Source: an uncultured Actinomycetes bacterium
Lineage (GTDB): Bacteria; Actinomycetota; Thermoleophilia; RBG-16-64-13
Assembly: GCA_963784835.1 (NCBI GenBank)
Contig: CAWASM010000002.1
Span: forward strand, 272,076-304,075
DNA length: 32,000 bases
Reading direction: 5' to 3'
Shown: piece after piece, positions 5,525-30,439 of the stretch
Layout: every line of letters starts with the position of its first letter
Numbering within the stretch: the first letter of the stretch is position 1
Made by a program: the position numbers and the translations under genes
Notes under the pieces: generated by a model
The model's input: only the letters and a program-made list of their open reading frames with translations
What the model was told of the DNA's origin: nothing
Databases searched by the model: none

Positions 5525-7276
5525 GTGGAGACTGGGCTCACAAGCGGTTGGCACATGTCGCGCGGGGGCGCAACGTACGGTCCCTACGAATGGAACGACC
5601 TGGTCGCCTGGGCGCAGGGAGGGCGACTCGCCCCCGGAGACCTCGTCTGGCAGGCGCAGCTTCCTGGTTGGATGCCGGCCGGGAAGGTGCCGGGATTGTT
5701 CCCGGCCTGGTCCGACGCTCTGGTTCCCGCGTATGGACAATCCCAGAGGATATCCTCACACCGGGGACGATGGGCGCTCATAGCCGGGCTGTCCACGCTT
5801 GTCGTGGCGGGAGCGGTGGTGGGGGTGCTCTTCGCGGCCGGGGTCTTCTCCAAGCAGTCCGTGGTGGTCGAGACTCCCATGCAGGGCCCCACGGTCATCG
5901 ACGTTCCCTATGACTCCTCGGAGCTGGTGGTTTCGCCTGAGGATGGAGGGCAGCTCGAGTTTCAAGGCGCCCAGATCTCTGTCCCGCCGGGCGCGGTAGC
6001 TTCGGACGCGACGCTGGAGGTCAAGGTACTGCCGGATGACTTCAACGTGAGTCCGACGGCTTCGCCAGAGGATGAGTTCTTCGCGGTCGGCCCCGTGGTG
6101 GACTTCGGGCCCGCGGGAACCGCCTTCGACCAGCCGGTGACGGTCACCGTGCCCTACGACGAGGGTCTCCTGCCGGCCGGTATTCCAGAAGAAAACGTGG
6201 CTTTGGTCTACTGGGATGGGTCGGCCTGGGTCACGGTGCAGGGCACGGTCGACACGAGCAGGAACACCGTCACCGCCCAACTTCGGGAGTTCGACGGGGT
6301 AGTTCTCACGACCGTCGCAGCGCTCGTATTGGTGCCAGTCGCGGTGGGGATGTGGGTCTACAAACTGACCAGGAGCGACCCCATCATCGATGGGAAAGCG
6401 GACACGTACATCATCCCCGACAACTCCACGGTCAAACAGATGGCCCAGACCAGCACGTGCGGCGGCGTTTCCCTTGCCAACCAGCAAGCACTTGCCCAGC
6501 ACATGGAGAGTCTGCAGACCCCGACACCGCAGAAGCTCGCCTTCACCAAGCCCGACGGGACACAAATCCAAATGAACGAGGGCGAGCACTACGACGCGGG
6601 TGCCGGCACCAACTGGCAGATGCCGAACGCCTTCTTCGACAAGAACATGAAGGGGGACTGCACAGACGTGACCAATGCCATGGTGAGCGTGTTCCGGTCG
6701 CTCGGGTATGAGGCCAGGGGAGTATTCGGATATGAGACTGATCCCACTACGAAGGCGCAAGACCCGCACGCGTGGGGAGAAGTGCTGATAGGCGGCAAGG
6801 TCTACCTGATCGACGAGCAGGGGCAAGTGTCACCGCGTGAGCGGGCCATGGAACTGCAGCACTTGGAGCGGCCCAAACCGGAGGACGCTCGGTACAAGAT
6901 GTGGGACGACGTCAATCACGTGCAAAAGCAAGATCCCGACTGGTACAAGCGGTACCTCACCAGCACGACTACCAGCACGACCGCCGGCATCGACGCCATG
7001 GCCATAAACGGCACTTGGGTAGGCCAGGCGAGCAACGGGACAGCAGTCGATGATGTCAATCTCGTCATAAGTGTCTCAGAGGGGGGCACCGGAAGCGCCA
7101 CGGCGACGTGGAAGGACCCACGGTACTCGCCGATGCAAGCGATGGTGGTAATCAACGGGGACGTGGTTGAAATAGGATTCCAGGACATGACCCAGTTGTC
7201 TGGAAACTTTACCGGTGGCAATACCCTAACCCTGTCGGGCCCGTCGACAACGTGGAAGCTCACGCGGGTACAGTGA
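5525..7276 (+). CDS. Membrane protein with a GYF_2-like N-terminus, two TM helices flanking a ~190-aa domain, a transglutaminase-like cysteine protease core and a C-terminal beta-rich domain
   Basis: GTG 5525 lies 5 nt after GGGAGGA. 'GWHMSRGGATYGPYEWNDLVAWAQGGRLAPGDLVWQAQLPGWMPAGKVPGL' fits the GYF_2/DUF4339 pattern. The TMs are 'WALIAGLSTLVVAGAVVGVLFAAGVF' and 'VVLTTVAALVLVPVAVGMWVY'. The Cys-His-Asp context is 'GDCTDVTNAMVSVFRSLGYEARGV...DPHAWGEVLIGGKVYLIDEQG'. Confidence 0.8.
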   Translation: METGLTSGWHMSRGGATYGPYEWNDLVAWAQGGRLAPGDLVWQAQLPGWMPAGKVPGLFPAWSDALVPAYGQSQRISSHRGRWALIAGLSTLVVAGAVVGVLFAAGVFSKQSVVVETPMQGPTVIDVPYDSSELVVSPEDGGQLEFQGAQISVPPGAVASDATLEVKVLPDDFNVSPTASPEDEFFAVGPVVDFGPAGTAFDQPVTVTVPYDEGLLPAGIPEENVALVYWDGSAWVTVQGTVDTSRNTVTAQLREFDGVVLTTVAALVLVPVAVGMWVYKLTRSDPIIDGKADTYIIPDNSTVKQMAQTSTCGGVSLANQQALAQHMESLQTPTPQKLAFTKPDGTQIQMNEGEHYDAGAGTNWQMPNAFFDKNMKGDCTDVTNAMVSVFRSLGYEARGVFGYETDPTTKAQDPHAWGEVLIGGKVYLIDEQGQVSPRERAMELQHLERPKPEDARYKMWDDVNHVQKQDPDWYKRYLTSTTTSTTAGIDAMAINGTWVGQASNGTAVDDVNLVISVSEGGTGSATATWKDPRYSPMQAMVVINGDVVEIGFQDMTQLSGNFTGGNTLTLSGPSTTWKLTRVQ

Positions 7277-13085: not shown

Positions 13086-14048
13086 CACCTTCACGATACC
13101 AACTTCTCTCTCAGGACCTCATACGGAGTCAGCCCCTTAAGCCCGGCGTGAGGCCGGTGGACGTTGTAGAACTCCTCCCAGACCGCGAGCTTCTCCGTGA
13201 GGTCGACGTCGTCGGTGTACTCAAGGAGCTGATAGAACTCGAGCTGATCGGTGAGGTGAGAGCGCTCGACCTTGCCGTTGAGGTTCGGGCTCCCCGGCTT
13301 GATGTAGGTGTGCTTCATGCCCTGGTCCTCCACATGCCAATGGAACTTGGCCTGGAACTCGTGGCCGTTGTCGGTCCGCACGGTGTGGATGCGGAAGGGG
13401 AAACGCTCCACGACGTGGTCGATGAAGTCGATGGCGCTCTCCTGGTTGTGTTTGTTATAGACCTTGAGAGCGCGGATGCGGGTGGCGTCGTCCACGGCGG
13501 TGAACTGGTAGCGCTGCACCTTGCGGCCGGCCGGATCCACGAACTTCAGGAACTTCACGTCCACCTGCACGTGGTGGCCGGGCATCTGCTTCTCGTAGCG
13601 CTTGCTCATGATCGAGCGAGTGCGACAGTTGGCCGGCAGCCGGCTGAGACCATTCCGGGTGAGCACGCGGTGGACCCCGCTCGCCGAGATGCCTATCCCG
13701 TGATAGCGCTCCAGGTACCAGGCGATCCGCCGCGGTCCGAAGTGATAGTTACGGCGTAGGTGAAGGATCTTCTCCTCGACGGGGGCCGGCGTGCGTAGGG
13801 CCACATTCTGCGGGCAGGGCTTCTTGTTCACGAGACCCGTCTCGCCATGTTTCTCGTAGGCTCGCTTCCAGATGTAGAAGCACTGCCGTGAGATCCCGAA
13901 ATGGCGGCAGGCGAGCGATACGTTGCCTGACTCTTCGGCGTACCTAAATACGGCCAGCTTGCGCCTGATGTCCCTCTCAGCTTTCGTCACCTAACAACCT
14001 CCGATTGACTCTCGCTACTCTATAGCTTGTGTCAACCAAGGTCGTGGA
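13069..14048 (-). mobile_element. IS481-family insertion sequence
   Basis: Terminal inverted repeats are ACGACCTCGGTTGACAC (13072-13088) and GTGTCAACCAAGGTCGT (14029-14045), matching at 16 of 17 positions. They flank a single DDE transposase ORF. I could not identify a target-site duplication. Confidence 0.8.
13091..13990 (-). CDS. IS481-family DDE transposase (rve integrase core)
   Basis: Intact 299-aa ORF. It has an N-terminal HTH ('ACRHFGISRQCFYIWKRAY'), 'HVQVDVKFL...FTAVDDATR...VRTDNGHEF' (the DDE context) and 'FYNVHRPHAGL'. Confidence 0.9.
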   Translation of the reverse strand: MTKAERDIRRKLAVFRYAEESGNVSLACRHFGISRQCFYIWKRAYEKHGETGLVNKKPCPQNVALRTPAPVEEKILHLRRNYHFGPRRIAWYLERYHGIGISASGVHRVLTRNGLSRLPANCRTRSIMSKRYEKQMPGHHVQVDVKFLKFVDPAGRKVQRYQFTAVDDATRIRALKVYNKHNQESAIDFIDHVVERFPFRIHTVRTDNGHEFQAKFHWHVEDQGMKHTYIKPGSPNLNGKVERSHLTDQLEFYQLLEYTDDVDLTEKLAVWEEFYNVHRPHAGLKGLTPYEVLREKLVS

Positions 14049-14056
14049 TTCCATAA

Positions 14057-14130
14057 CTGAATACCACCGTTTTACATCTGGGAAGGGGTCAATTCAGGGG
14101 TCAAGCACGTTGAAGGGGTAGATGGTGATC
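14057..14130. repeat. Conserved arm block with two tandem GGGGTCAA units
   Basis: 'ctgaataccacc...tctgggaaggggtcaattcaggggtcaagcacgttgaaggggta' aligns with 7461-7535. Confidence 0.65.
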
Positions 14131-14145
14131 TAGCGACAAAAGGAA

Positions 14146-14220
14146 AAAGGCCCGGAAATCCGGGCCTTTCAAATGGTAGCGGGGACAGGATTTGAACCTG
14201 CGACCTTCGGGTTATGAGCC
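14146..14220 (-). other. Direct repeat of the tRNA-fMet 3' 47 nt (14174-14220, 1 mismatch) plus a terminator hairpin (14146-14169). att-type island junction.
   Basis: Matches 18541-18587 except for one t>c change at 14200. Confidence 0.8.
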
Positions 14221-14466: not shown

Positions 14467-14985
14467 CTAGAGGGCGATCACCCGGAACGCTCTCACGTTC
14501 ATCTGTCCCGAGGCGTATATGCCGACTGTCCCGGCCTCCAGCTGGCGGTTGTCGGTCGCCCTCACTACCTCGGCGCCGTCAAACAGTAGCCGGATGGAGT
14601 TTCCATATACCTCGAGCCGGTAGGTATGCCAGTTGCCATCGTCCACGTATTTCACGCTGGAGAGCATCTCGGAGGCGAAACCCACCCGCACTGAGCAGTC
14701 CGACTGATAATAGCCCCCCTCGTAGCCTCCCCAGTATCCTTCACCGCTAATCAGTCTGGCCTCCAGGTAGAAGCTGCCTTTGCTGGGGTCGATCACCTGC
14801 ATCTCCGCTTCCACCGCATAGTCGGTCATACTTCCCAGATTTACCGGGGCGATTGAAATGGATGGCTGGGTCCCGTCCGATACCAGCATCCCGTGAACGC
14901 TCTTCCACTGGCCCACTCTCGCCCAACCTTCGGTGTCCGCCGTCCACTCGGTGATCTCGTAGACCAGGGTGCCAGGGGTGACGAC
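14467..14985 (-). repeat. Copy 1 of a ~520-bp direct repeat; copy 2 is at 15888-16406
   Basis: The nucleotide strings are near-identical through the 3' two-thirds and more diverged toward the 5' end. They encode the paralogous lectin-like domains of the lipoprotein and the TIR protein. Confidence 0.85.
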
Positions 14986-15276
14986 GGCCTCGGTTGTAGT
15001 AGTGGTGGCCGCGGAGGTGGTGGTCGTGGAGATGGAGGTGGTCGCCATGAGAGTCGTCGTGGTGGTATCCGACGCACTCGCGTTCGTCGTGGGCGTCACC
15101 GCGGTGGTCAGAGTGCCCGACTCGGCCACGGTCGCGCTCGGGCCTGAGGGAACATATGAGGTCGCACTGCAACCTGCAACCAGGAACACAAGGAGAAGGA
15201 GGGGAATCATCCAATGCGGTCGCCGTGATATCTTGCGACGCTGCAAGACGCCGTCGTTTGCCTCCCGGCCGTTCAT
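14467..15276 (-). CDS. Lipoprotein with a Thr-rich linker and a C-terminal concanavalin-A-like (DUF1080/LamG-like) domain
   Basis: Lipobox 'FLVAGC'. The linker is TTTTT-rich. The domain shows 'GQWKSVHGMLVSDG...DYAVEAEMQV...GNWHTYRLEVYGNSIRLLFDGAEVV...GTVGIYASGQMNVRAFRV'. Its ATG overlaps the upstream stop (ATGA at 15273-15276). Confidence 0.75.
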   Translation of the reverse strand: MNGREANDGVLQRRKISRRPHWMIPLLLLVFLVAGCSATSYVPSGPSATVAESGTLTTAVTPTTNASASDTTTTTLMATTSISTTTTSAATTTTTEAVVTPGTLVYEITEWTADTEGWARVGQWKSVHGMLVSDGTQPSISIAPVNLGSMTDYAVEAEMQVIDPSKGSFYLEARLISGEGYWGGYEGGYYQSDCSVRVGFASEMLSSVKYVDDGNWHTYRLEVYGNSIRLLFDGAEVVRATDNRQLEAGTVGIYASGQMNVRAFRVIAL

Positions 15277-15791
15277 TGTTGACCTCCCGCTACAGGATCT
15301 TGGCCTTTGTCATCTCCAGCCTCTGGCTCAGAAGCGATGGCCTCAGCCGCTTGCTCGCTCGACAGGGGCGGAGCCGCCTCCTGCGCGGCGTACTCAGCCG
15401 CCGGAGCCTTCGGCGCCTCGCTCTGGAACTGGGCAGGTGGGCTGACGGGCCTGGCGTTCCGCTTCCGCCGCATCCGCACCGCGAGAGCCACCACCACTGT
15501 CAAGACGATCGCCCCGAGGAGAAACCACGCGGCCAGCTTCATGAAATCGCTCAGAGTATCATCGAGACTCAAGCGCACCGCTGCCACGACGACTGCAAGC
15601 GCCAAGGTCCGGATGTACAGCTTCTTGACCACCCACACGACGGCCAGCAGCCACGTCGCGATGATGCACACCCAACTACAGGCCACAAAAGCCACCGAGG
15701 CGGCGCTCGTGTCGCGCATGTACTCGAGTGCAAAGAAGCAACCGATCGCCAGCACGGAGAACACTGCCTGCCATGCTCTAAAGACCGCCAT
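15273..15791 (-). CDS. Polytopic membrane protein (about 4 TM) with a Pro/Ala/Glu-rich tail, function unknown
   Basis: ATG 15791 follows GAGGAGTGAGAAGG, although the ORF is open up to 15851. Hydrophobic segments include 'AVFSVLAIGCFFAL', 'VAFVACSWVCIIATWLLAVVWVV', 'LALAVVVAAV' and 'AAWFLLGAIVLTVVVALAV'. Confidence 0.65.
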   Translation of the reverse strand: MAVFRAWQAVFSVLAIGCFFALEYMRDTSAASVAFVACSWVCIIATWLLAVVWVVKKLYIRTLALAVVVAAVRLSLDDTLSDFMKLAAWFLLGAIVLTVVVALAVRMRRKRNARPVSPPAQFQSEAPKAPAAEYAAQEAAPPLSSEQAAEAIASEPEAGDDKGQDPVAGGQQ

Positions 15792-15887: not shown

Positions 15888-17237
15888 CTACAGAGCGACC
15901 ACGCGGAACGCTCTCACGTTCATCTGTCCCGAGGCATATATGCCGACTGTCCCGGCCTCCAGCTGGCGGTTGTCCGTCGCCCTCACTACCTCGGCACCGT
16001 CAAACAGTAGCCGGATGGAGTTTCCATATACCTCGAGCCGGTAGGTATGCCAGTTGCCATCGTCCACGTATTTCGCGCTGGAGAGCATCTCCGAGGCGAA
16101 TCCCGCCCGCACTGAGCAATCCGATTTGTAGTAACCCCCCTTGTAGCCGCCCCAGTACCCTTCGCCGTTGATCAGTCTGGCCTCCAGGTAGAAGCTGCCT
16201 TTGCTGGGGTCGATCACCTGCATCTCCGCTTCCACCGCGTAGTCGGTCAGGGTTCCCAGGGTTACCGGGGCGACTGAAATGGACTGCTGGGTCCCATCTG
16301 ATACCAGCATGCCGTCCACAATCTTCCATTGGCCCATCTTCGTCCAGCCATCAGCGCTCGGCGTCCACTCGCTCTTGTCGTAGAGCACTGTGCCGGGGGT
16401 GACGACGGCCTGAGTGGTGGTCGTGGTGGATGAGGAGGTGGTGGTGGATGAGGTAGTGGAGGAGGAGGTAGTGGTCACCTCAGTGATAGTCGTGGTCGTC
16501 GCAAGGTCATTCGTAGTCGCCGGCAAGCCGGTAGTATGAGAAGACTCTGCCATGGCGGCCGCGGAGATGCTGCTGCTGACCGTGGTGCCCCCATCAGTTC
16601 CGCCGGCCTTTCCGCCCCCATACAGCATGACCGCGAACACGATGGCCGCGATCACCACCATGGCTCCGGCCCCAAGACCGACCAGACCCAAGGGACGCCT
16701 ATACCATCGTCGGGAGCCCTCGACTGTGCCTCTGGGTGGCGGTGTTTTCACCGTCTCCGCACGGGAGGCGGTCACGGTAATCGGTGTGTGCACCCGGGCT
16801 ACGGGCTCTACCCCTGGCGAGGCAGCACTCCCATCTCTCGCTAGGAGTAGCTGTACCGTGTCGGTTAAGTGCTCGAGGTGCCTCTCCAGCGGTGGAGTGA
16901 TCGCATCCAGCCAGTGCGTGCTGCTTATGTAGTATTCCATTGCCGCGCTGGGGGCCACGTGTTCGACCCGGAAAGGCAGTATGGGGATCGCCCTGCTCGC
17001 CGCCCTCTCAACCTCCCTCACCACATGGGGAGAGTTGTTCGATCTGGAAGAGAACACCAAGACCATGAGCGCGGCATCGCTGATAGCCTTGATGAGCTGT
17101 TCGGCATAGTCGCGGCCGGGTAGGACGTCGCGCGGGGCGACCCAGCAGCGCACATGCTTCGCCTCCAGGGCAGCGGACACCGCGTCCGCCACGGGCTTGT
17201 CCTCAGACGAGTAGCTGATAAAGACATCGTGCGCCAC
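15888..17237 (-). CDS. TIR-domain protein: N-terminal TIR, one TM helix, Ser/Thr-rich linker, C-terminal concanavalin-A-like (DUF1080/LamG-like) domain
   Basis: GTG 17237 lies 7 nt after GAGGGGG. 'HDVFISYSSEDKPVADAVSAALEAKHVRCWVAPRDVLPGRDYAEQLIKAISDAALMVLVFSSRSNNSPHVVREVERA' fits the TIR_2 pattern. The TM is 'LGLVGLGAGAMVVIAAIVFAVMLY'. The C-terminal 172 aa are paralogous to 14467-14985. Confidence 0.85.
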   Translation of the reverse strand: MAHDVFISYSSEDKPVADAVSAALEAKHVRCWVAPRDVLPGRDYAEQLIKAISDAALMVLVFSSRSNNSPHVVREVERAASRAIPILPFRVEHVAPSAAMEYYISSTHWLDAITPPLERHLEHLTDTVQLLLARDGSAASPGVEPVARVHTPITVTASRAETVKTPPPRGTVEGSRRWYRRPLGLVGLGAGAMVVIAAIVFAVMLYGGGKAGGTDGGTTVSSSISAAAMAESSHTTGLPATTNDLATTTTITEVTTTSSSTTSSTTTSSSTTTTTQAVVTPGTVLYDKSEWTPSADGWTKMGQWKIVDGMLVSDGTQQSISVAPVTLGTLTDYAVEAEMQVIDPSKGSFYLEARLINGEGYWGGYKGGYYKSDCSVRAGFASEMLSSAKYVDDGNWHTYRLEVYGNSIRLLFDGAEVVRATDNRQLEAGTVGIYASGQMNVRAFRVVAL

Positions 17238-17405
17238 CGATACGCCCCCTCTTTCACACACCGATGATCGTGGGCAACTGGACTATAACACGGTGGACTC
17301 CGGAGAAGTCGAGCCCAAAACTGACCACCCCTAAATCACCCGCTACGTGGCCCAGATCGAGATGACCTTGCCTCGGCAGGCACGGTCCACCCCGGCCTCT
17401 CCCCC

Positions 17406-17897
17406 CTATCGAGAAGTCCAGCGTGCAATCCCCAGACCTACCGAGCGAAGCAGGAGCGGTATGCGCTCCACCACTCGCCTGTCCTTTTCCTTTTCCTCCT
17501 CGGGAAGCCTCTTGTAACGCACTAGACAAGGATGAGTGCGGGCGACAGGATCGACCGTCGGCCCGAAGCTCCACCCGGCCTGAAGCTTCTCGCGCATCCA
17601 CCGCATGTGCTCTTGCCGGGACAGGCGTTCGAGTTCTCTGGGTGTGAACCTGAACTCCCCGAGAACAAGGCCATTGAGAGGGACAATCGCGGCACCGATC
17701 ATCTCCAGCTTCGACCCTATGTCATCAGCCTGGCTGCGGTTGGAGTCTCGTTCCTCCTCAGACAGACGCTCGTAGGGAACCAGCCTCCCGGCGTCTGGGC
17801 TGGCATCCCGGGATACGGCCGCCCGGGCGACGTAATCCTGATGGATCGCCTTCGCCAACTCCTCGCGCGAATGTGCTTCAAGATGGGTGGAAATCAT
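17406..17897 (-). CDS. RyR-domain protein (two RyR-like repeats)
   Basis: 'ELERLSRQEHMRWMREKLQAGWSFGPTVDPVARTHPCLVRYKRLPEEEKEKDRRVVERIPLLLRSVG' fits the RyR-domain consensus. A weaker first repeat is 'LAKAIHQDYV...LVPYERLSEEERDSNRSQADDIGSKL'. ATG 17897 overlaps the upstream stop (ATGA). Confidence 0.75.
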   Translation of the reverse strand: MISTHLEAHSREELAKAIHQDYVARAAVSRDASPDAGRLVPYERLSEEERDSNRSQADDIGSKLEMIGAAIVPLNGLVLGEFRFTPRELERLSRQEHMRWMREKLQAGWSFGPTVDPVARTHPCLVRYKRLPEEEKEKDRRVVERIPLLLRSVGLGIARWTSR

Positions 17898-18379
17898 GCC
17901 GCAGCATCGCTCCGAAGACCCCCGCTGCTCTCCGCGACCTGTTTCCACTCCCTGCTCTCCGACTCCATGAGCGTCTCGGCACGCTCTACAAACAATGCGG
18001 CGGGATCCGCTATCCCGGCATACGGGCCAGCGCTGTAGCGAAAGAGATGTACCTCACGCTGCAAGGCTTCGCATGTGAGTCGATGCGTGATCCACGACTC
18101 CTTGTTCTTGAAGGCTGACAAGCTCACGGTCGCGATTGCCGCCACCATTGCGACCGCAGCAGGCAGGATCCGAAAAATCACCTCCGACGGATGGTCCAGC
18201 GGTGGAGGCGAGAAGATTATGTCCAGTACCAGGAGCACAGGGGTCAACGCCGTCGCTCCGATGGACAGTGCCGCCAGACGGCGGAATCGGCGCCGGTGCT
18301 GCACGGCCTTGCGGCCGTGATACTTGATTTGGCCTTCAACGCGCTCGGTCAAGTACAAGCCAACATCTGACGCGCCCAT
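17894..18379 (-). CDS. DUF4231/SLATT-family 2-TM protein
   Basis: ATG 18379 lies 4 nt after AGGAGGG; the ORF is open up to 18424. 'QIKYHGRKAVQHRRRFRRL' is followed by two TMs ('ALSIGATALTPVLLVLDIIF', 'ILPAAVAMVAAIATVSLSAF') and then 'ESWITHRLTCEALQREVHLFRYSAGPY', which is the DUF4231 layout. Confidence 0.75.
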   Translation of the reverse strand: MGASDVGLYLTERVEGQIKYHGRKAVQHRRRFRRLAALSIGATALTPVLLVLDIIFSPPPLDHPSEVIFRILPAAVAMVAAIATVSLSAFKNKESWITHRLTCEALQREVHLFRYSAGPYAGIADPAALFVERAETLMESESREWKQVAESSGGLRSDAAA

Positions 18380-18507
18380 GAGGCCCTCCTGGTCACCATC
18401 TGACTCGACGCTTCTTCTTACCATTTTAACGGCGTCACGCGCAACTCCACGGGGGTCAATTCAGGGGGCAGGCGCGTTAAGAGCAGCCTACGTGACGATC
18501 CCGCCAA

Positions 18508-18537
18508 AAGAAAAAGGCCCGGAAATCCGGGCCTTTC
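18508..18537 (-). terminator. Rho-independent terminator after tRNA-fMet
   Basis: On the minus strand the stem aaaggcccgg/ccgggccttt is followed by a T-rich run (tttttctttt). It starts 4 nt after the CCA end. Confidence 0.7.
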
Positions 18538-18540
18538 ATA

Positions 18541-18617
<77 letters not shown>

Positions 18618-18840
18618 CCGCTGTGAACGGGAAGTATAGCACGACGCCCACGCCAGCGACGGCAAAGGCCCTGCCAACCTACTCCCTTGGTCCCATCGCA
18701 ACCCCGCCTTCAACGCGCTATCATCGCGCGGCCCCGGAAAAGGGGGGAATGCAGGCGGATTGGCGAATGGCGCTAAGTGCTTCGCCATTCTTGCCGATAA
18801 ATCCACGGAGAGGACAAAGCCAGAAGCCGTGAGAGCGTTG

Positions 18841-20052
18841 ATGCATCGAGTCCGGTCAAGCCGCGAACGTTCCTGCACCGCCGCCATCGGGCGCGCGCGG
18901 GTGATGGGTCGTGCCTGGCTGTGGATCGGCGGCGTGTTGCTCTTCGCCGGAGTCCTTCTCTTCTGTTCCCTCCCCGCCTCCGTGCAGGCCGTTCCCGACG
19001 ATTCCAAGCCCCTCCGCCTCTTCGGCGAAGTCAAGACCCAGGTAGACGACCTCACCCTCCAAGCGCAGTTCGTGCAGGCCGACATCGACTCCCTGGACGA
19101 CCAGCTGGAGCAGGCGTCCGAGACCTACAACCGCTTGCAGGTGCAACTGGACGAGTTGAACATCTCCATGAACACCATGCGCCGGCAACTGCAGGCCGCT
19201 CAGGACGACCGAGCCTACCGGCTGGAGAAGTACGAGAGCCGCGTCTGTGACCTCTACAAGGACGGGGGAAACAACGAGTTCTTGGACCTGCTCCTCTCGG
19301 CCAAGGACGGGCCGGACTTCCTGTCCCGGGTGCGGCTGGCTGCCAACCAGGCCGACGAAGACCAGCGCCTGGTAGCGAAGCTCGCGGAGAGCACCGCGAA
19401 GATGAACACCATCCTCGCCAGTATGGATGCGGCCAAGCTCCAGGAGGTCGATATCCGCCGGCAGATGAGCGACCAACGGGAGGGCATCCAGGCGGCGCTC
19501 GAGGCGCGGAAGGCCACCCTGGCCGATCTGGACACCCAGCTCTCCACCGTCATCGAGCAAGAGCGAGCGAGGCAGGCGGAGGAGCAGACCAGGCTGCAGG
19601 CCGCCCTGCAGGCCCTGATCAACGGCGGACAGGTCTACGACGGACCGCTCCCACAGACCGACAGCGAGATAATCAACCAGCTCCTCGAGACCGCGGCCAC
19701 CTACATCGGTATTCCCTACGTGTGGGCCGGCGACCGCCCGTCCACCGGGATGGACTGCTCCGGCTTCACCCGTTTCGTCTACGGCCAGCATGGGGTGGCC
19801 CTGCCGCACTTCTCCGGATATCAGGCCGAGATGGGCATCCCCGTGGACTATGTCGACATGCAGGCCGGTGACCTGGTGGCCTTCGGCTTCCCGGTGCACC
19901 ACGTGGGCATCTACATCGGCGACGACCTCTTCATAGAGGCGCCCAGGACGGGAGATGTCATCAAGATCTCGCGGCTGAGCGCACATGGCAACCTGGCCGC
20001 CATCCGCCGGTTCGACATCCAGCCTCGCATCGGACCGCCCGCCATCTACTAG
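18841..20052 (+). CDS. Secreted NlpC/P60 (C40) peptidoglycan endopeptidase with a long N-terminal coiled coil (RipA-like architecture)
   Basis: 'GIPYVWAGDRPSTGMDCSGFTRFVYGQHG...GDLVAF...HHVGIYIGDDLFIEAPRTGDVIKIS' gives the Cys/His catalytic context. The signal-like segment is 'WLWIGGVLLFAGVLLFCSLPASVQA'. The start is uncertain (ATG 18841 or 18904). Confidence 0.85.
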   Translation: MHRVRSSRERSCTAAIGRARVMGRAWLWIGGVLLFAGVLLFCSLPASVQAVPDDSKPLRLFGEVKTQVDDLTLQAQFVQADIDSLDDQLEQASETYNRLQVQLDELNISMNTMRRQLQAAQDDRAYRLEKYESRVCDLYKDGGNNEFLDLLLSAKDGPDFLSRVRLAANQADEDQRLVAKLAESTAKMNTILASMDAAKLQEVDIRRQMSDQREGIQAALEARKATLADLDTQLSTVIEQERARQAEEQTRLQAALQALINGGQVYDGPLPQTDSEIINQLLETAATYIGIPYVWAGDRPSTGMDCSGFTRFVYGQHGVALPHFSGYQAEMGIPVDYVDMQAGDLVAFGFPVHHVGIYIGDDLFIEAPRTGDVIKISRLSAHGNLAAIRRFDIQPRIGPPAIY

Positions 20053-27518: not shown

Positions 27519-27580
27519 TTGACCTTTGCTACCCGAGGGCGTAACTTGTGAAACACGTAACGGTGTTATCTGTGTAACGA
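27519..27580 (+). promoter_or_regulatory. Putative rex promoter with Rex-box-like elements
   Basis: TTGACC (27519-27524), 17 nt, TAACTT (27542-27547). A TTGTGAA half-site lies at 27546-27552. The inverted repeat TGTTA-n6-TAAC at 27564-27578 resembles the TGTGA-n6-TCACA Rex operator core. GTAAC occurs three times (27541, 27557, 27574). Confidence 0.3.
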
Positions 27581-28737
27581 TGCTGCGATGGGACGGGGCG
27601 GAGCGCGTGACAGTGGGAACAAAGCCGGGAGTATCCCGCAAGACGGTGGGCAGGCTCAGCCTCTACCGCCGGCTGCTCGACAACCTCTCGGAATCCGGCA
27701 CCACCAGCATCTTCTCCCACCAGCTGGCCCACCTAGCGGGAGTCAGCGCCACCCAAGTGAGGCGCGACTTCATGGTGATCGGCTACTCGGGTAGCCCCAA
27801 CCGTGGCTATCAGGTGGACACCTGCCTGGACGCCATCTCCAGCCTCCTCGACGGCTGCACGCGCCAGGATGTGGTTCTTGTGGGGCTGGGCCGGCTGGGC
27901 AGGTCGGTGCTCGCCCACTTTGCCGGCCGCCGCCCGCTGCTGCGCATCGCGGCGGGCTTCGACACCGACCCGGCTACTATCGGGACCTCCGTCGAGGGCT
28001 GTCCGGTGCACGGCATGCAAGACCTGGAACCCATTGTCAAGGCCAAGGGCATCCGCATCGCCATCCTGGCAGTGCCGCCCGAGACCGCGCAGACCGCTGC
28101 TGAGGCCTTGGTGCGCGCGGGCGTGCGAAGCATCGTGGACTTCACAGCCATCCCCCTGCAGGTGCCCGAGGACGTGTTCGTGGACCATATGGACATCACT
28201 TCGGCGCTGGAATCGGCCGCCTTCTTCGCCCGCCAGGAACAGATCCCAGGAGACACGGGCGCCGGCGTCGAGAACGGCGTGGAGAACGGTGGCGAGGCCG
28301 AGATGGACCCCATGATCCACACCATCGACGCCTTGCTGGAAGAGGCTCACTTAGGGCTCCAAGAGCTCGCTGCCAAGATCGGCGCCCGGGTCCTCACGCC
28401 TCACCCCGAGACCGCGGGCGAGGTGACGCGCATCTACGCCGGCGACCGGGTGAGCGACCTCCTCAACGAGGCCTCCGACAAGACCCTGCTGGTAACCAAT
28501 CTGGCCAACCTACAGATGTTGCGGGTGGCTGAACTGATGGAGGTCCCCGGCATCTGCTTCGTCGACGGGGTCGACCCGGGACCGGACATAGTGGACCTAG
28601 CCGCCGAAGACGGCACGTTGCTCATGGTGTCGCCCTTGGGCGTCTTCGAGACCTGCGGTCTGATATACCAATTGCTCGCCGGTGAAGCGCCTTCTCCCGA
28701 GGCTCGCCCTCTCGAAGCCCGGGATGAGCGGGGCTGA
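27580..28737 (+). CDS. rex: Redox-sensing repressor Rex fused in frame to a C-terminal DRTGG domain
   Basis: The Rex part is 'GRLSLYRRLLDNL...SHQLAHLAGVSATQVRRDFMVIGYSGSPNRGYQV...VVLVGLGRLGRSVLAHF...FDTDP...IAILAVPPETAQ'. The linker is 'IPGDTGAGVENGVENGGEAE'. The DRTGG part is 'IYAGDRVSDLLNEASDKTLLVTNLANLQMLRVAELMEVPGICFVDG'. The start is uncertain (ATG 27580 or GTG 27607). Confidence 0.8.
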   Translation: MLRWDGAERVTVGTKPGVSRKTVGRLSLYRRLLDNLSESGTTSIFSHQLAHLAGVSATQVRRDFMVIGYSGSPNRGYQVDTCLDAISSLLDGCTRQDVVLVGLGRLGRSVLAHFAGRRPLLRIAAGFDTDPATIGTSVEGCPVHGMQDLEPIVKAKGIRIAILAVPPETAQTAAEALVRAGVRSIVDFTAIPLQVPEDVFVDHMDITSALESAAFFARQEQIPGDTGAGVENGVENGGEAEMDPMIHTIDALLEEAHLGLQELAAKIGARVLTPHPETAGEVTRIYAGDRVSDLLNEASDKTLLVTNLANLQMLRVAELMEVPGICFVDGVDPGPDIVDLAAEDGTLLMVSPLGVFETCGLIYQLLAGEAPSPEARPLEARDERG

Positions 28738-30439
28738 CCTCCCCACTATCATGGAATTCTTGTCATACGACATAGAGAGCAACGACTTCCGCCGGGCGGG
28801 AGCCGCGTCGCGCGCCATCAAGGAGCACCTGAAGCGCATCGGGGCCGAGGCCGAAGCTATCCGCCGCACCATGATCGCCGCCTATGAGGCCGAGATGAAC
28901 GTGGTAATACACTCCACCGGCGGCCGGTTGGAGGCTTGTCTTTCGGAGTCCCAGATAGACGTGAACGTGGTGGACGGGGGCCCGGGCATCCCCGACGTGG
29001 AGCAGGCCATGGTGGAGGGGTTCTCCACGGCCGGCGCCGAAGCCCGCGCCTTGGGTTTTGGGGCGGGGATGGGCCTACCCAATATCAAGCGCAGCAGCGA
29101 TCGTCTGCGCGTGACCTCGCGGATGGGAGAAGGCACCCGGGTGAGCTTCACGGTCTATCTGCAACCGGAGAGCACCGACGGGAAGCGGCCCATCTCGCTC
29201 TACGCCTCTGCCGACCGCTGCCGCGACTGCCGGGCGTGCTTGACTGCCTGCCCCACCCAAGCCATGCGCGTGCGCGACGGGCGTCCAAGCGTACTCGAAC
29301 ACCTCTGCATAGACTGCGCGGCCTGCATAGCAGCCTGCACCAGCGCGGCGCTGACCATGCGTGACGATGTCTCCAGTCTGGAAGCGCTGCCCGACAAGCA
29401 AGACATGCTGCTGGTGGTGCCGCCGGCTCTGCTGGCCGGTTGCGGCGGGGACTATCCGCCGGCACAGGTGCTGGCCGCATTGCAGGGCCTGGGCTTTGCC
29501 GGGGTGATCACCTCGGAGCCATACGAACTGGCGCTGCTCGCTGCGGTGGGCAAGGCCCCGGCCGAGGGCGCAACCGGCGGCAAGGCCCGTCCCCGGCCTC
29601 TCATCTCGCCCTCGTGCCCGGCGATCGTGAACCTGGTAGAACTGCGCTTCCCCTCGCTGGTGCCCCATCTCGCCCCCTTCGATTCGCCCTGGGAGGCGGT
29701 GCAGGCAGCATACGGCGACCGGCCGGTCGCCTACGTGGTCTCGTGCCCCAGCCAGCGCTCCGCCCTGCTCCTGCAGACGCAAGGCACGGCCGCGGGCGCG
29801 TCCGCCGAATGCTTGACGCCCGGCACACTCCGCCAAGCCGTCATGATGAAGCTGACCGGTGGGGCAAGCCCCGAACCGGAGTCGCACAGCGAGACCGCCT
29901 CGAGCCCCCTCCCCACGCACACCGGTGCGATGCCGGCGGGCACCGCCGGTGACGATACACTTCTGACGGTCACCGGCATCGCGCACGTCATAGCGGTACT
30001 GGAGCAGATCGAGAACGGCCTGCTGGGCGACGTGGCCGCCATCGACCCGTATGCCTGCGCAGGCGGGTGTTTCGGCTCCCCGCTTCTGTTCGAAGACCAC
30101 CACGTAGCCGCCCACCGTTGGGAACGCGGCCGGGCGGCGGTCGAAGCCGCCGAGGCGGCGGGCGCCTCCGGCGCCGTTCCCGCGCCGGCCCCGCAGCCGC
30201 GCCGGCGGCCCTTCGGCGCCCGGCCGGGCATCCGCCTGGATGCCGACATGGGCAAGGCCATCCAGAAGCTGGGCCACTTGCAGCAGGTCATCCACTCACT
30301 GCCGGGCAGGGACTGCGGCACCTGCGGCGCCCCCACCTGCGCAGCCTTGGCCGAAGACGTAGTCATGCAACGGGCCGGCATCGAACTGTGCCCTTACACT
30401 GCCCGTACGAACGGAGAGAAGGAGGACCGCGACCGATGA
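28724..30439 (+). CDS. Multidomain Fe-S protein: GHKL/HATPase_c (RsbW-like) module, 2x[4Fe-4S] ferredoxin, [FeFe]-hydrogenase large-subunit-like domain, and a C-terminal CxxCGxxxC Fe-S domain
   Basis: HATPase boxes: 'EAEMNVVIH', 'VVDGGPGIP', 'GFGAGMGLPNI'. Ferredoxin: 'CRDCRACLTACP' and 'CIDCAACIAAC'. HydA-like motifs: 'SPSCPAIV', 'VVSCPSQ', 'ACAGGCFGSP'. C-terminus: 'GRDCGTCGAPTCAALAED'. The start is uncertain (ATG 28724 overlapping the rex stop, or ATG 28751). Confidence 0.8.
   Translation: MSGADLPTIMEFLSYDIESNDFRRAGAASRAIKEHLKRIGAEAEAIRRTMIAAYEAEMNVVIHSTGGRLEACLSESQIDVNVVDGGPGIPDVEQAMVEGFSTAGAEARALGFGAGMGLPNIKRSSDRLRVTSRMGEGTRVSFTVYLQPESTDGKRPISLYASADRCRDCRACLTACPTQAMRVRDGRPSVLEHLCIDCAACIAACTSAALTMRDDVSSLEALPDKQDMLLVVPPALLAGCGGDYPPAQVLAALQGLGFAGVITSEPYELALLAAVGKAPAEGATGGKARPRPLISPSCPAIVNLVELRFPSLVPHLAPFDSPWEAVQAAYGDRPVAYVVSCPSQRSALLLQTQGTAAGASAECLTPGTLRQAVMMKLTGGASPEPESHSETASSPLPTHTGAMPAGTAGDDTLLTVTGIAHVIAVLEQIENGLLGDVAAIDPYACAGGCFGSPLLFEDHHVAAHRWERGRAAVEAAEAAGASGAVPAPAPQPRRRPFGARPGIRLDADMGKAIQKLGHLQQVIHSLPGRDCGTCGAPTCAALAEDVVMQRAGIELCPYTARTNGEKEDRDR

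Follow-up and report, generated by a model that had tools for sequence, protein, structure and literature searches.

The gene at positions 15888–17237 of the window (the whole 32,000-nucleotide stretch of DNA analysed here) encodes, by a modest balance of probability, the sensor and signal generator of a three-gene, Thoeris-like TIR module, consisting of a SLATT protein, a RyR-domain protein and a TIR protein with a transmembrane (TM) helix and a lectin domain. The TIR domain is predicted to lie inside the cell and the lectin domain outside. The bacterial TIR immunity proteins characterised to date reside in the cytoplasm, and little is known of how they sense infection. If the reading is true, bacteria also couple TIR signalling to cell-surface events, by means of a nearly constant TIR and an exported domain that can be exchanged, in approximately 7,200 sequence clusters, and a functional parallel to the Toll-like receptors has been reached by a different chain order. 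The window contains a compact cassette of this kind, in which the SLATT, RyR and TIR-TM-lectin genes are accompanied by a lipoprotein gene with the same lectin domain (Table 1).

Table 1. Positions in the window of the cassette genes, the segments of the TIR protein and the flanking repeats.
Feature	Positions	Strand	Residues or length	Basis and remarks
TIR-TM-lectin gene	15888–17237	minus	449 aa	
TIR domain	16827–17237	minus	aa 1–137	Pfam TIR_2, AlphaFold2; predicted cytoplasmic
Basic juxtamembrane linker	16692–16826	minus	aa 138–182	disordered; ends RRWYRRP
Single TM helix LGLVGLGAGAMVVIAAIVFAVMLY	16620–16691	minus	aa 183–206	hydropathy, AlphaFold2
Ser/Thr-rich stalk	16389–16619	minus	aa 207–283 (77 aa)	disordered; predicted extracytoplasmic
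ConA-like (DUF1080/PF06439) beta-sandwich ectodomain	15891–16388 (15888–16388 with stop codon)	minus	aa 284–449	
SLATT_1/DUF4231 two-TM protein	17894–18424	minus	176 aa	predicted pore-forming effector; NCBIfam, Pfam
Stand-alone RyR-domain protein	17406–17897	minus	163 aa from ATG	two-repeat Repeat12-like adenine-nucleotide-binding fold
Membrane protein	15273–15791	minus	172 aa from MAVFRAW	approximately four hydrophobic segments
Lipoprotein	14467–15276	minus		lipobox LVAGC; Ser/Thr stalk and ConA-like domain
tRNA-Met (CAT)	18541–18617	minus		ARAGORN; 3' part from the anticodon loop on begins the proximal direct repeat
Terminator-like hairpin after tRNA-Met	18512–18537	minus		identical copy at 14145–14170
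Distal direct repeat	14085–14220	minus		partial tRNA-Met (anticodon loop to 3' end), terminator, and ~60 nt downstream partly conserved

Domain architecture of the TIR protein

According to the AlphaFold2 model and the domain matches, the product is predicted to be a type-II-oriented single-pass membrane protein, in which a TIR domain, a linker, a TM helix, a stalk and a ConA-like domain follow one another; the domain scores are far beyond the level of chance. The longest call in the ORF listing (15888–17261, 457 aa) begins at an upstream GTG. The GTG at 17237 is the better start, because AAAGAGGGGG is located upstream of it with a 7-nt spacer, because MAHDVF forms the N-terminus of every homologue, and because the NCBI/ENA prediction (P0001) is the identical 449-aa protein.

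Pfam TIR_2 (PF13676) covers residues 13–121 of the 457-aa ORF (E = 1.7e-20, 74.1 bits against a cut-off of 28). In the AlphaFold2 model, the TIR domain has a pLDDT above 90, and its strands (residues 5–8, 31–33, 57–62 and 86–90) alternate with helices to form a flavodoxin-like beta/alpha fold. The closest solved TIRs match at only E ~1e-7, and a Foldseek search with the whole model returned no TIR structures among the 50 matches listed, all of which are lectin-domain matches. Glu75, in the motif REVERA, sits at the canonical catalytic glutamate position of enzymatic TIRs, aligns with the conserved glutamates of TLR6 (HYEL) and oyster TIR-STING (KFEM), and is invariant in all 78 cross-phylum relatives of the alignment. 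The domain carries a catalytic-type glutamate, and NADase activity is predicted.

The 449-aa protein contains no signal peptide or N-terminal hydrophobic segment. The linker holds 8 Lys/Arg and 3 Asp/Glu residues, and the TM helix reaches a 19-residue Kyte-Doolittle mean of 2.64. A TIR domain devoid of a signal peptide and a single strong helix after RRWYRR had already been described in the sequence-only reading, and Pfam, hydropathy and AlphaFold2 confirm both. The same reading had placed a Ser/Thr stalk and a ConA-like domain of the DUF1080 type after the helix, which agrees with Pfam, AlphaFold2 and Foldseek. Ser and Thr make up 53% of the stalk, which is disordered in the AlphaFold2 model.

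The ectodomain matches PF06439 (DUF1080/3-keto-disaccharide hydrolase; E = 1.3e-10, 42.1 bits against a cut-off of 26.8) and is modelled with a pLDDT above 90. Its top PDB matches in Foldseek are 1oq1 (a galectin-like B. subtilis protein), CBM66, the Emp46/47 lectins, legume lectins and GH16 glucanases, all at probability 1.00, with E values of ~4e-9 to 5e-8 for 1oq1 and CBM66. Its model superposes on 1oq1 and CBM66 (4b1m) with a TM score, normalised to the target, of 0.62–0.72; however, sequence identity is only 15–20%, and the likeness is one of fold. In the literature searched, no description of a DUF1080-type domain fused to a TIR domain was found.

Predicted membrane topology

The predicted topology is derived from hydropathy, charge bias and comparative evidence. 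Within 15 residues on either side of the TM helix, there are 4 Lys/Arg on the N-terminal side and 1 on the C-terminal side. The same bias is found in 98 close single-TM relatives (342 vs 121) and in 72 further family representatives (251 vs 115), and exactly one TM helix follows the TIR domain in 70 of 83 reference-genome relatives, the window's own protein included. In addition, the neighbouring lipoprotein combines a lipobox with a domain 85% identical to the ectodomain, and this copy must be exported. Many relatives carry domains after the helix that are often of extracytoplasmic types, including PQQ/BamB-type propellers, a solute-binding domain, PEGA and FGE-sulfatase.

The lectin domain is thus predicted to be outside on three independent grounds, namely the positive-inside bias in the protein and the family, the lipoprotein paralogue, and the types of post-helix domain in the relatives, all of which favour the orientation first proposed, with the TIR inside and the ectodomain outside. 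Counter-evidence exists in some relatives, where ankyrin, TPR or WD40 domains, which are more usually cytoplasmic, follow the helix, and in the subgroup adjoining RyR-TPR-S-cyclase genes, where the residues flanking the helix show the opposite charge bias. Outside-in control of the TIR is putative.

SLATT and RyR genes upstream

The two genes upstream of the TIR gene provide the strongest clue to its role; the sequence-only reading had mentioned neither these genes nor the minus strand. The SLATT protein scores 95.4 bits against the NCBIfam SLATT_1 model (cut-off 41), and Pfam DUF4231 and SLATT_1 match as well. Its stop codon overlaps the ATG of the RyR gene (ATGA), and the two genes are translationally coupled. 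Between the RyR stop and the TIR start lie 168 nt. All five genes of the cassette lie on one strand, and the terminator scan between the two tRNA-terminator copies gave only weak matches, located inside ORFs.

The RyR protein matches Pfam RyR (PF02026) with 68.8 bits (cut-off 27.4) and Repeat12 of RyR1–3 in PDB profiles with E values down to 4.8e-33 (RyR Repeat12 chimera). Its AlphaFold2 model (pLDDT 88) aligns with human RyR3 Repeat12 at a Foldseek TM score of 0.66–0.72. In the phage protein RyR Tad, the 3'cADPR-contact residues are H129, W132, K147, H154, K170 and D171 (10.64898/2026.06.04.730250). Five of these six are kept in the window's protein at identical spacing (H97, W100, H122, K138 and D139 for H129, W132, H154, K170 and D171, respectively), while K147 is replaced by V115. 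The protein is predicted to act as a receptor for the TIR product or as a modulator of it. Also conserved is the catalytic His/Asp pair of phage RyDEP, and the protein may therefore degrade the signal rather than transduce it.

Conservation of the gene neighbourhood

At 22 of the 80 loci with the TIR module, a RyR-domain ORF occurs within 8 kb; at 14 of the 80, such an ORF directly adjoins the TIR gene (raw counts, not enrichment). Among the 117 neighbours surveyed, RyR is the top neighbour domain, followed by SLATT_1 and DUF3108 with 4 each, again as raw counts; other TIR_2 proteins account for 3 of the 117. Approximately 70% of related TIR loci have neither RyR nor SLATT within 8 kb, and therefore the coupling of the TIR to these partners is not obligatory.

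At three loci (L007, L093 and L094), the genes for SLATT, RyR and TIR-TM are arranged in the same order as in the window; the TIR and TM region is 65% identical to that of the window, and the ectodomain is a PQQ beta-propeller. At two others (L005 and L008), the same SLATT-RyR pair adjoins a different, soluble TIR-TPR protein. Four independent lineages of SLATT-RyR have flanks that can be read, and a TIR neighbour is present in each. The RyR-profile scan of metagenomes yielded 11 loci, most of which are too short to inform.

Near related TIRs, the RyR domain is also fused to a 2TM+TrkA_N channel-like protein, to an AAA ATPase, and to TPR-S with a nucleotide cyclase. Such diverse outputs form the pattern expected if RyR is a common signal-reading domain. 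Some of these partners (the nucleotide cyclase and the channel-like protein) are as compatible with ordinary signal transduction as with suicide defence.

Cassette boundaries and the downstream gene pair

The cassette forms an islet between direct repeats, located at a tRNA gene and next to an IS element. Downstream of the TIR gene, the stop codon of the membrane-protein gene overlaps the ATG of the lipoprotein gene, which is two positions downstream of the TIR gene. Over 170 codons, the ectodomain and its lipoprotein paralogue differ by ~25 synonymous and ~25 non-synonymous codon changes. In the favoured reading, the ectodomain of the TIR protein was copied from this neighbouring lipoprotein gene. 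The membrane protein and the lipoprotein form a conserved module of two genes; membership of this pair in the TIR system was considered and rejected, as the pair occurs without any TIR gene at L089 and L090.

The TIR-module family

The TIR module of the window belongs to a family of many bacterial phyla and some archaea, frequent in Chloroflexota, Actinomycetota and Acidobacteriota, and nearly all of its clusters combine a TIR domain and one TM helix with a hypervariable C-terminal domain. In the reference-genome scan, which used an alignment of the TIR alone, the best match is 70% identical. The domains after the helix are of very many kinds, and the ectodomain is the variable, exchangeable part. 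Several copies occur per genome, also in tandem, together with multi-TIR proteins, and many of the loci are placed among housekeeping genes.

A search for other TIR-TM-lectin architectures, which the sequence-only reading had suggested, found them in P0043, P0033, P0076, P0081, P0102 and P0109, with LamG in P0074. The distant TIR-TM-DUF1080 proteins (P0043, 34% identical) converge on a 2TM+TrkA_N+RyR gene. The architecture had been called unusual; this holds relative to the characterised TIR proteins, but not in nature, where the family is huge. An origin of the family in prophages or viruses was also considered and rejected, since 2.9 million viral contigs contain only 14 distant matches (29–33% identity). 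No paper on TIR-TM-ectodomain proteins or on a cellular RyR-TIR linkage was found in the literature searched; Burroughs et al. 2015 (NAR) and Burroughs & Aravind 2020 (J Bacteriol) may hold an earlier mention of TM-linked TIRs or of the TPR-S sensor.

Comparison with known systems

Type VII Thoeris consists of a TIR protein (ThsB) and the SLATT effector ThsH, with cADPR as the signal (bioRxiv 10.64898/2025.12.03.692087). Similarly, the TIR gene of the window is clustered with a gene for a SLATT two-TM effector, located two genes upstream, and the expected logic leads from a TIR-made nucleotide to a membrane effector. However, there are significant differences. Type VII Thoeris is a two-gene operon with a soluble ThsB-type TIR, whereas the window has three genes, with RyR between SLATT and TIR. 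Characterised ThsB proteins are small and soluble, whereas this TIR is membrane-anchored, bears an exported region of 240 residues, and belongs to a different sequence family. PADLOC reports no known system in the window; its hits are weak and at the level of the TIR (ThsB1, 27 bits), and none of its models matches the SLATT or the RyR protein. Against NCBIfam Thoeris ThcB4, the TIR protein scores 25 bits (cut-off 220), and a search of part of the Thoeris survey's TIR table did not find the family motif.

Two 2026 preprints (PMC13232231; 10.64898/2026.06.04.730250) describe RyR-domain proteins of phages, RyDEP and RyR Tad, that bind or hydrolyse TIR signals of the cADPR type (2'/3'cADPR and cADPR). 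The RyR protein of the window shares with them PF02026, the Repeat12-like fold and five of the six 3'cADPR residues, including the catalytic His/Asp pair of RyDEP. In contrast to these viral counter-defence sponges and hydrolases, it is cellular and encoded with a TIR and a SLATT protein. This cellular setting, together with the fusions to channel-like, AAA and cyclase modules in relatives, suggests a host-side receptor role, which appears in the main text of neither preprint.

The sequence-only reading had also compared the protein to a Toll-like receptor. The predicted topology, with a ligand-binding domain outside, one TM helix and the TIR inside, resembles that of the animal Toll-like and IL-1 receptors, and activation by clustering is plausible. 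The likeness extends to the predicted topology but not to the chain order, which is reversed: animal TLRs are type I proteins with N-terminal LRRs and a C-terminal TIR, whereas here the TIR is N-terminal, the orientation type II and the ectodomain C-terminal. Furthermore, the ectodomain is ConA-like rather than LRR or Ig, the TIR keeps the enzymatic glutamate, and the partners are nucleotide-binding proteins rather than MyD88-type adaptors. The resemblance is convergent, and implies neither membership nor homology of architecture.

Proteins with a constant module and a variable domain are known from the conflict systems of multicellular bacteria (Kaur et al. 2020, 2021, eLife; PMC7159879, PMC8195603). 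Like them, the present family combines a conserved module for signalling or effector action with an extracellular region that varies greatly and is sometimes TM-linked, has SLATT and TPR-S as nucleotide-responsive partners, and is common in Chloroflexota, Actinomycetota and Acidobacteriota. In the searchable text of the two papers, neither a family with an N-terminal TIR, a single TM helix and an ectodomain nor a RyR linkage is described, and the term RyR occurs 0 times.

Proposed mechanism and alternative explanations

In the favoured reading, the ectodomains would cluster when the envelope is perturbed or when they bind an external ligand, be it a glycan, a component of the envelope or a surface protein of an attacker, and the cytoplasmic TIRs would thereby be brought together. 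Clustered TIRs would be active because TIR enzymes require self-association to form the active site. The assembled TIRs would convert NAD+ to an ADPR-type nucleotide, for example a cADPR isomer; the small cytoplasmic RyR protein would bind this nucleotide and control the SLATT two-TM pore. Through the pore, the membrane would be depolarised, leading to growth arrest or death as an abortive defence, or to a graded stress response.

To our knowledge, the RyR domain had no known biochemical function outside the ryanodine receptors until 2026. If true, the TIR linkage gives this domain a native prokaryotic role, explains the origin of the phage anti-Thoeris RyR sponges, and makes the long-debated link between cADPR and the ryanodine receptor testable in a simple three-gene system.

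The foremost alternative, itself rather unlikely, is envelope signalling outside immunity, in which TIR-TM receptors, like Ser/Thr kinases or chemoreceptors, would report the status of the wall, exopolysaccharide or nutrients via an NAD-derived messenger, and the RyR proteins would adjust ion flux through the channel-like proteins, cyclic-nucleotide synthesis through the cyclases or membrane potential through SLATT, without killing. The channel-like and cyclase outputs of the RyR partners, the variety of post-TM domains, the multiple copies and tandem arrays, the many loci amid housekeeping genes, the rarity of the family in viral contigs and the negative PADLOC result are all consistent with such a role. 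However, the SLATT and patatin neighbours are typical abortive-infection effectors, and the TIR+SLATT operons tested so far are antiphage. Moreover, the islet that holds the window's cassette is flanked by repeats and lies at a tRNA gene and next to an IS element, and the combination of a highly conserved TIR with a hypervariable C-terminus is what is seen in conflict systems.

A less probable role, and a distinctly doubtful one, is that of a tether. The helix and the ectodomain would hold the TIR at the membrane in a monomeric, inactive state, until a cytoplasmic cue or proteolysis in the 45-residue linker frees it to oligomerise and deplete NAD+ or make a signal. The long, disordered, basic linker between the TIR and the helix would suit this scheme, and the many family members without a RyR or SLATT partner would fit an NADase effector that works by itself. 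The TIR of Dictyostelium TirC, which is toxic when free, is held in check by a TM helix, the removal of which leads to lysis (PMC13142454). Nevertheless, a bare tether has no need of a 240-residue exported region, and it leaves unexplained both the large, folded, hypervariable C-terminal domain, which is under selection according to the codon differences from the paralogue, and the copying of that domain from a surface lipoprotein.

A bolder extension of the favoured reading, which we regard as a long shot, holds that the whole family would be outside-in innate immune receptors, whose ectodomains are integrated decoys copied from the cell's own surface proteins. Such decoys would catch a phage receptor-binding protein or another attacker before genome entry, and their clustering would activate the TIR, with a cADPR-type product read by RyR proteins that gate pores or channels. 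The system would then be ancestral to the animal cADPR-ryanodine-receptor axis and the source of the phage RyR sponges.

It is highly improbable that the genes adjoin by chance, with the TIR acting alone or with the downstream membrane-protein/lipoprotein pair and with SLATT-RyR as an independent two-gene module. The 168-nt gap, the independent occurrence of the downstream pair elsewhere and the lack of SLATT at most TIR-family loci would fit this arrangement, but it is largely refuted by the comparative data: the gene order recurs with a different ectodomain, SLATT-RyR adjoins an unrelated TIR-TPR protein at two loci, and RyR is the top neighbour domain of the family across phyla. A non-enzymatic scaffold, recruiting other TIR proteins through TIR-TIR contacts as in animal TLRs, is likewise very improbable, since the TIR_2 proteins among the immediate neighbours, the tandem TIR genes and the multi-TIR proteins that suit it are set against an invariant glutamate at the catalytic position and a conserved partner that is a nucleotide-binding RyR domain, not a TIR adaptor.

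Architecture and predicted topology of the TIR-TM-lectin protein

The ORF listing places a minus-strand ORF at 15888..17261. Since a GTG at 17237 is preceded at 7-nt spacing by AAAGAGGGGG, all homologues start MAHDVF, and protein P0001 from the homologue searches is on record as the identical 449-aa protein, 17237 is preferred over 17261 as the start. The N-terminus matches TIR_2 (Pfam, E=1.7e-20) and the C-terminus PF06439, the DUF1080/3-keto-disaccharide-hydrolase family (E=1.3e-10), both above the curated cut-offs. In an AlphaFold2 model built from 46 homologues, the C-terminal beta-sandwich adopts a concanavalin-A-like lectin/glucanase fold, with the best Foldseek matches in the PDB being 1oq1, CBM66, the Emp46/47 lectins, legume lectins and GH16 enzymes. 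Pfam, AlphaFold2 and Foldseek agree in every detail with the sequence-only reading, which had proposed a TIR, a TM helix, a Ser/Thr stalk and a lectin-like domain and had omitted only the strand.

Features of the window and of related loci (L-numbers, loci in other genomes or metagenomes)
Feature	Location	Strand	Remarks
TIR	aa 1-137		pLDDT >90, confident (AlphaFold2)
Basic linker	between TIR and helix		disordered (AlphaFold2)
Single helix	~aa 191-206		AlphaFold2
Ser/Thr stretch	between helix and beta-sandwich		53% Ser/Thr; disordered (AlphaFold2)
Beta-sandwich	aa 284-449		confident (AlphaFold2)
SLATT gene	17894-18424	-	
RyR gene	17406-17897	-	
TIR-TM-lectin gene	15888-17237	-	
Membrane-protein/lipoprotein pair	14467-15791	-	lipoprotein gene 14467-15276
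Same pair, L089	6416-7816		no TIR gene
Same pair, L090	2046-3570		no TIR gene
~140-bp direct repeats	14085-14220; 18452-18617		
IS481-type transposase	13091-13990	-	just past distal repeat
583-aa protein	5525-7276	+	GYF_2, ZU5, transglutaminase-like core
NlpC/P60 peptidoglycan hydrolase	18760-20052	+	PcsB-type coiled coil; immediately past tRNA-Met
Rex-like repressor	27526-28737		
HATPase/Fe-hydrogenase-like sensor	28682-30439		
SMC_N/AAA_23-type ATPase, L001-L004	4028-5770		
SMC_N/AAA_23-type ATPase, L009	6003-7757		

For the hydrophobic segment (aa 183-206) the mean Kyte-Doolittle value is 2.64, and within 15 residues of it four K/R lie on the N-side versus one on the C-side. The same asymmetry surrounds the helix in 98 close single-TM relatives (342 versus 121) and in 72 further representatives (251 versus 115). 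The strongest single argument for a lectin-out topology is the paralogue encoded in the same block, which carries a lipoprotein signal (lipobox LVAGC) and shares the Ser/Thr stalk type and a beta-sandwich 85% identical to the target's; because this lipoprotein bears the same domain, such a sandwich is exported in the source organism. The family-wide charge bias and the paralogue uphold, as a prediction, the earlier placement of the TIR inside and the lectin outside, which is very probably correct. This predicted topology is similar to that of TLRs, whereas the chain order is reversed and the ectodomain fold is different; the likeness is convergent. In the TIR proteins encoded beside RyR-TPR-S-cyclase genes (L039, L040, L043, L070, L085), the charge bias is reversed, with more K/R on the C-side of the helix.

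Operon with SLATT and RyR genes

Directly 5' of the TIR gene and on the same strand lie a SLATT gene and a RyR gene, which the earlier reading, though borne out on domain anatomy, had left unnoticed. The former encodes a two-TM protein of the SLATT_1/DUF4231 type (NCBIfam, 95 bits versus a cut-off of 41) and the latter a 163-aa RyR-domain protein (Pfam). The SLATT stop and RyR start codons overlap, and in the interval flanked by the two tRNA-Met terminator copies a terminator scan returned only weak matches, all within ORFs. SLATT_1 always precedes close homologues of the window RyR, and a TIR gene adjoins SLATT-RyR in every lineage with readable flanks. L007, L093 and L094 keep the order SLATT-RyR-TIR-TM as in the window, with a TIR and TM helix 65% identical to the window's and a PQQ propeller as ectodomain, and in L005 and L008 SLATT-RyR stands beside a divergent, soluble TIR-TPR.

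Across phyla, 22 of 80 TIR loci have an RyR-domain ORF no more than 8 kb away, and in 14 it is the immediate neighbour. No other neighbour domain occurs as often; SLATT_1 and DUF3108 come next (4 each), ahead of further TIRs (3) and patatin (2). Four classes can be distinguished among the RyR partners: channel-like 2TM+TrkA_N+RyR proteins, including one whose gene is convergent with that of the distant TIR-TM-DUF1080 protein P0043; AAA+RyR; RyR+TPR-S+nucleotide cyclase; and small SLATT-paired RyR proteins. Joined as it is to so many different outputs, RyR bears the hallmark of a domain that reads a signal.

The first class (~600 aa) comprises two N-terminal TM helices, an RCK-type NAD-binding TrkA_N domain and a C-terminal RyR; its genes adjoin TIR-TM genes at L009, L020, L026, L048, L066, L074, L087 and L001-L004, in Chloroflexota and other phyla. 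These proteins look like candidate ligand-gated channels and, as such, would be a direct bacterial counterpart of an ion channel that bears an RyR domain. The cyclase proteins (~770 aa) carry RyR at the N-terminus and are encoded beside the TIR genes with reversed charge bias. In addition, two distant lineages of Chloroflexota encode, beside the TIR-TM-DUF1080 gene and on the other strand, an SMC_N/AAA_23-type ATPase of ~580 aa that may be a further component of the system.

Fold of the RyR protein and proposed mechanism

The window RyR model is a complete two-repeat Repeat12-like domain (pLDDT 88) that superposes on Repeat12 of human RyR3, which binds ATP or ADP, with TM 0.66-0.72; a profile search of PDB sequences gave E down to 5e-33. 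Two preprints of 2026 (PMC13232231; 10.64898/2026.06.04.730250) demonstrate that RyR-domain proteins of phages act on 2'cADPR, 3'cADPR and cADPR made by TIRs, either sequestering or hydrolysing them. On alignment with one of them, RyR Tad (phage CB1 gp68), the ligand residues H129, W132, H154, K170 and D171 correspond to H97, W100, H122, K138 and D139 of the window RyR, K147 being the sole non-conserved one. The accessible portions of these two preprints do not discuss RyR proteins that cells encode alongside TIR genes, and that of the December 2025 Thoeris survey preprint makes no mention of RyR.

TIR+SLATT operons constitute type VII Thoeris, with canonical cADPR as the signal (December 2025 preprint). 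The window cassette is proposed to work alike, yet neither PADLOC nor the NCBIfam Thoeris models assign it to Thoeris; its TIR is from a different family and membrane-anchored, and it has an extra RyR gene. We lean towards reading the cassette as a signalling module of Thoeris-like design whose sensor is anchored in the membrane. Ectodomains clustered by an external ligand or an envelope perturbation would bring the cytoplasmic TIRs to self-associate and turn NAD+ into an ADPR-type nucleotide, which the RyR protein, as a receptor rather than a degrader, would bind and thereby control the SLATT pore, in defence or in envelope signalling. A purely non-immune role in envelope signalling is conceivable but unlikely, and a tether-and-release arrangement, with the ectodomain not acting as the trigger, is more doubtful still. 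All 78 relatives examined share E75, which occupies the position of the catalytic Glu in enzymatic TIRs, and a TIR serving as a non-enzymatic scaffold is highly improbable. Equally hard to credit is a coincidental adjacency of TIR and SLATT-RyR, which recurs across lineages.

A constant TIR module with exchangeable ectodomains

The target belongs to a very large family. Of the 8,000 candidates scored in a protein search, 929 were matches; HMMER, with a 135-residue TIR module as query, matched 7,200 clusters at E<=1e-30 among 1.84 billion cluster representatives. With genomes sampled at one per species, a further scan recovered at least 600 loci, 56-70% identical, from Chloroflexota, Acidobacteriota, Gemmatimonadota, Planctomycetota, Actinomycetota, Verrucomicrobiota, Proteobacteria, Bacillota, Armatimonadota and several archaea, and of 83 proteins from it, the window protein included, 70 have a single TM helix following the TIR. 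The TIR module is strikingly constant, in contrast to the hypervariable region after the helix (PQQ and Kelch propellers, solute-binding, FGE-sulfatase, PEGA, Sel1, TPR, ankyrin, DUF4189, LamG, DUF1080). The suggested search for similar architectures yielded further TIR-TM-DUF1080 proteins, such as P0043 (34% identity over 97% of the length). Some members (P0138, P0139, P0145) carry two to five tandem copies of the TIR module on a single polypeptide, P0138 and P0139 being without a predicted TM helix.

Over its final 558 nt the TIR gene can be aligned gaplessly with the lipoprotein gene. Identity is ~72-83% across most of the initial 180 nt and climbs to 97-98% in the 180 nt that precede the last stretch; the alignment ends exactly at the stop codon. 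The lipoprotein (Ser/Thr stalk, DUF1080) and the membrane protein encoded 5' of it (about four hydrophobic segments) form a conserved pair, translationally coupled through an ATGA overlap; in L089 and L090 the membrane protein has a C-terminal zinc ribbon, absent from the window copy. From the gapless match and the existence of the pair without a TIR gene, the TIR-TM gene either has taken over its neighbour's exported domain or is undergoing gene conversion by it; the window thus shows directly how the family's variable end gets swapped.

Genomic surroundings

The five-gene block (4.37 kb) is flanked by direct repeats that begin in the tRNA-Met anticodon loop and take in its terminator hairpin; they look like the att-type duplication of an integrated islet, and the block itself holds no integrase. 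ZU5, found here in the 583-aa protein, is best known from animal proteins. The remainder of the window carries anaerobe-type housekeeping genes, namely those for the Rex-like repressor and the HATPase/Fe-hydrogenase-like sensor.
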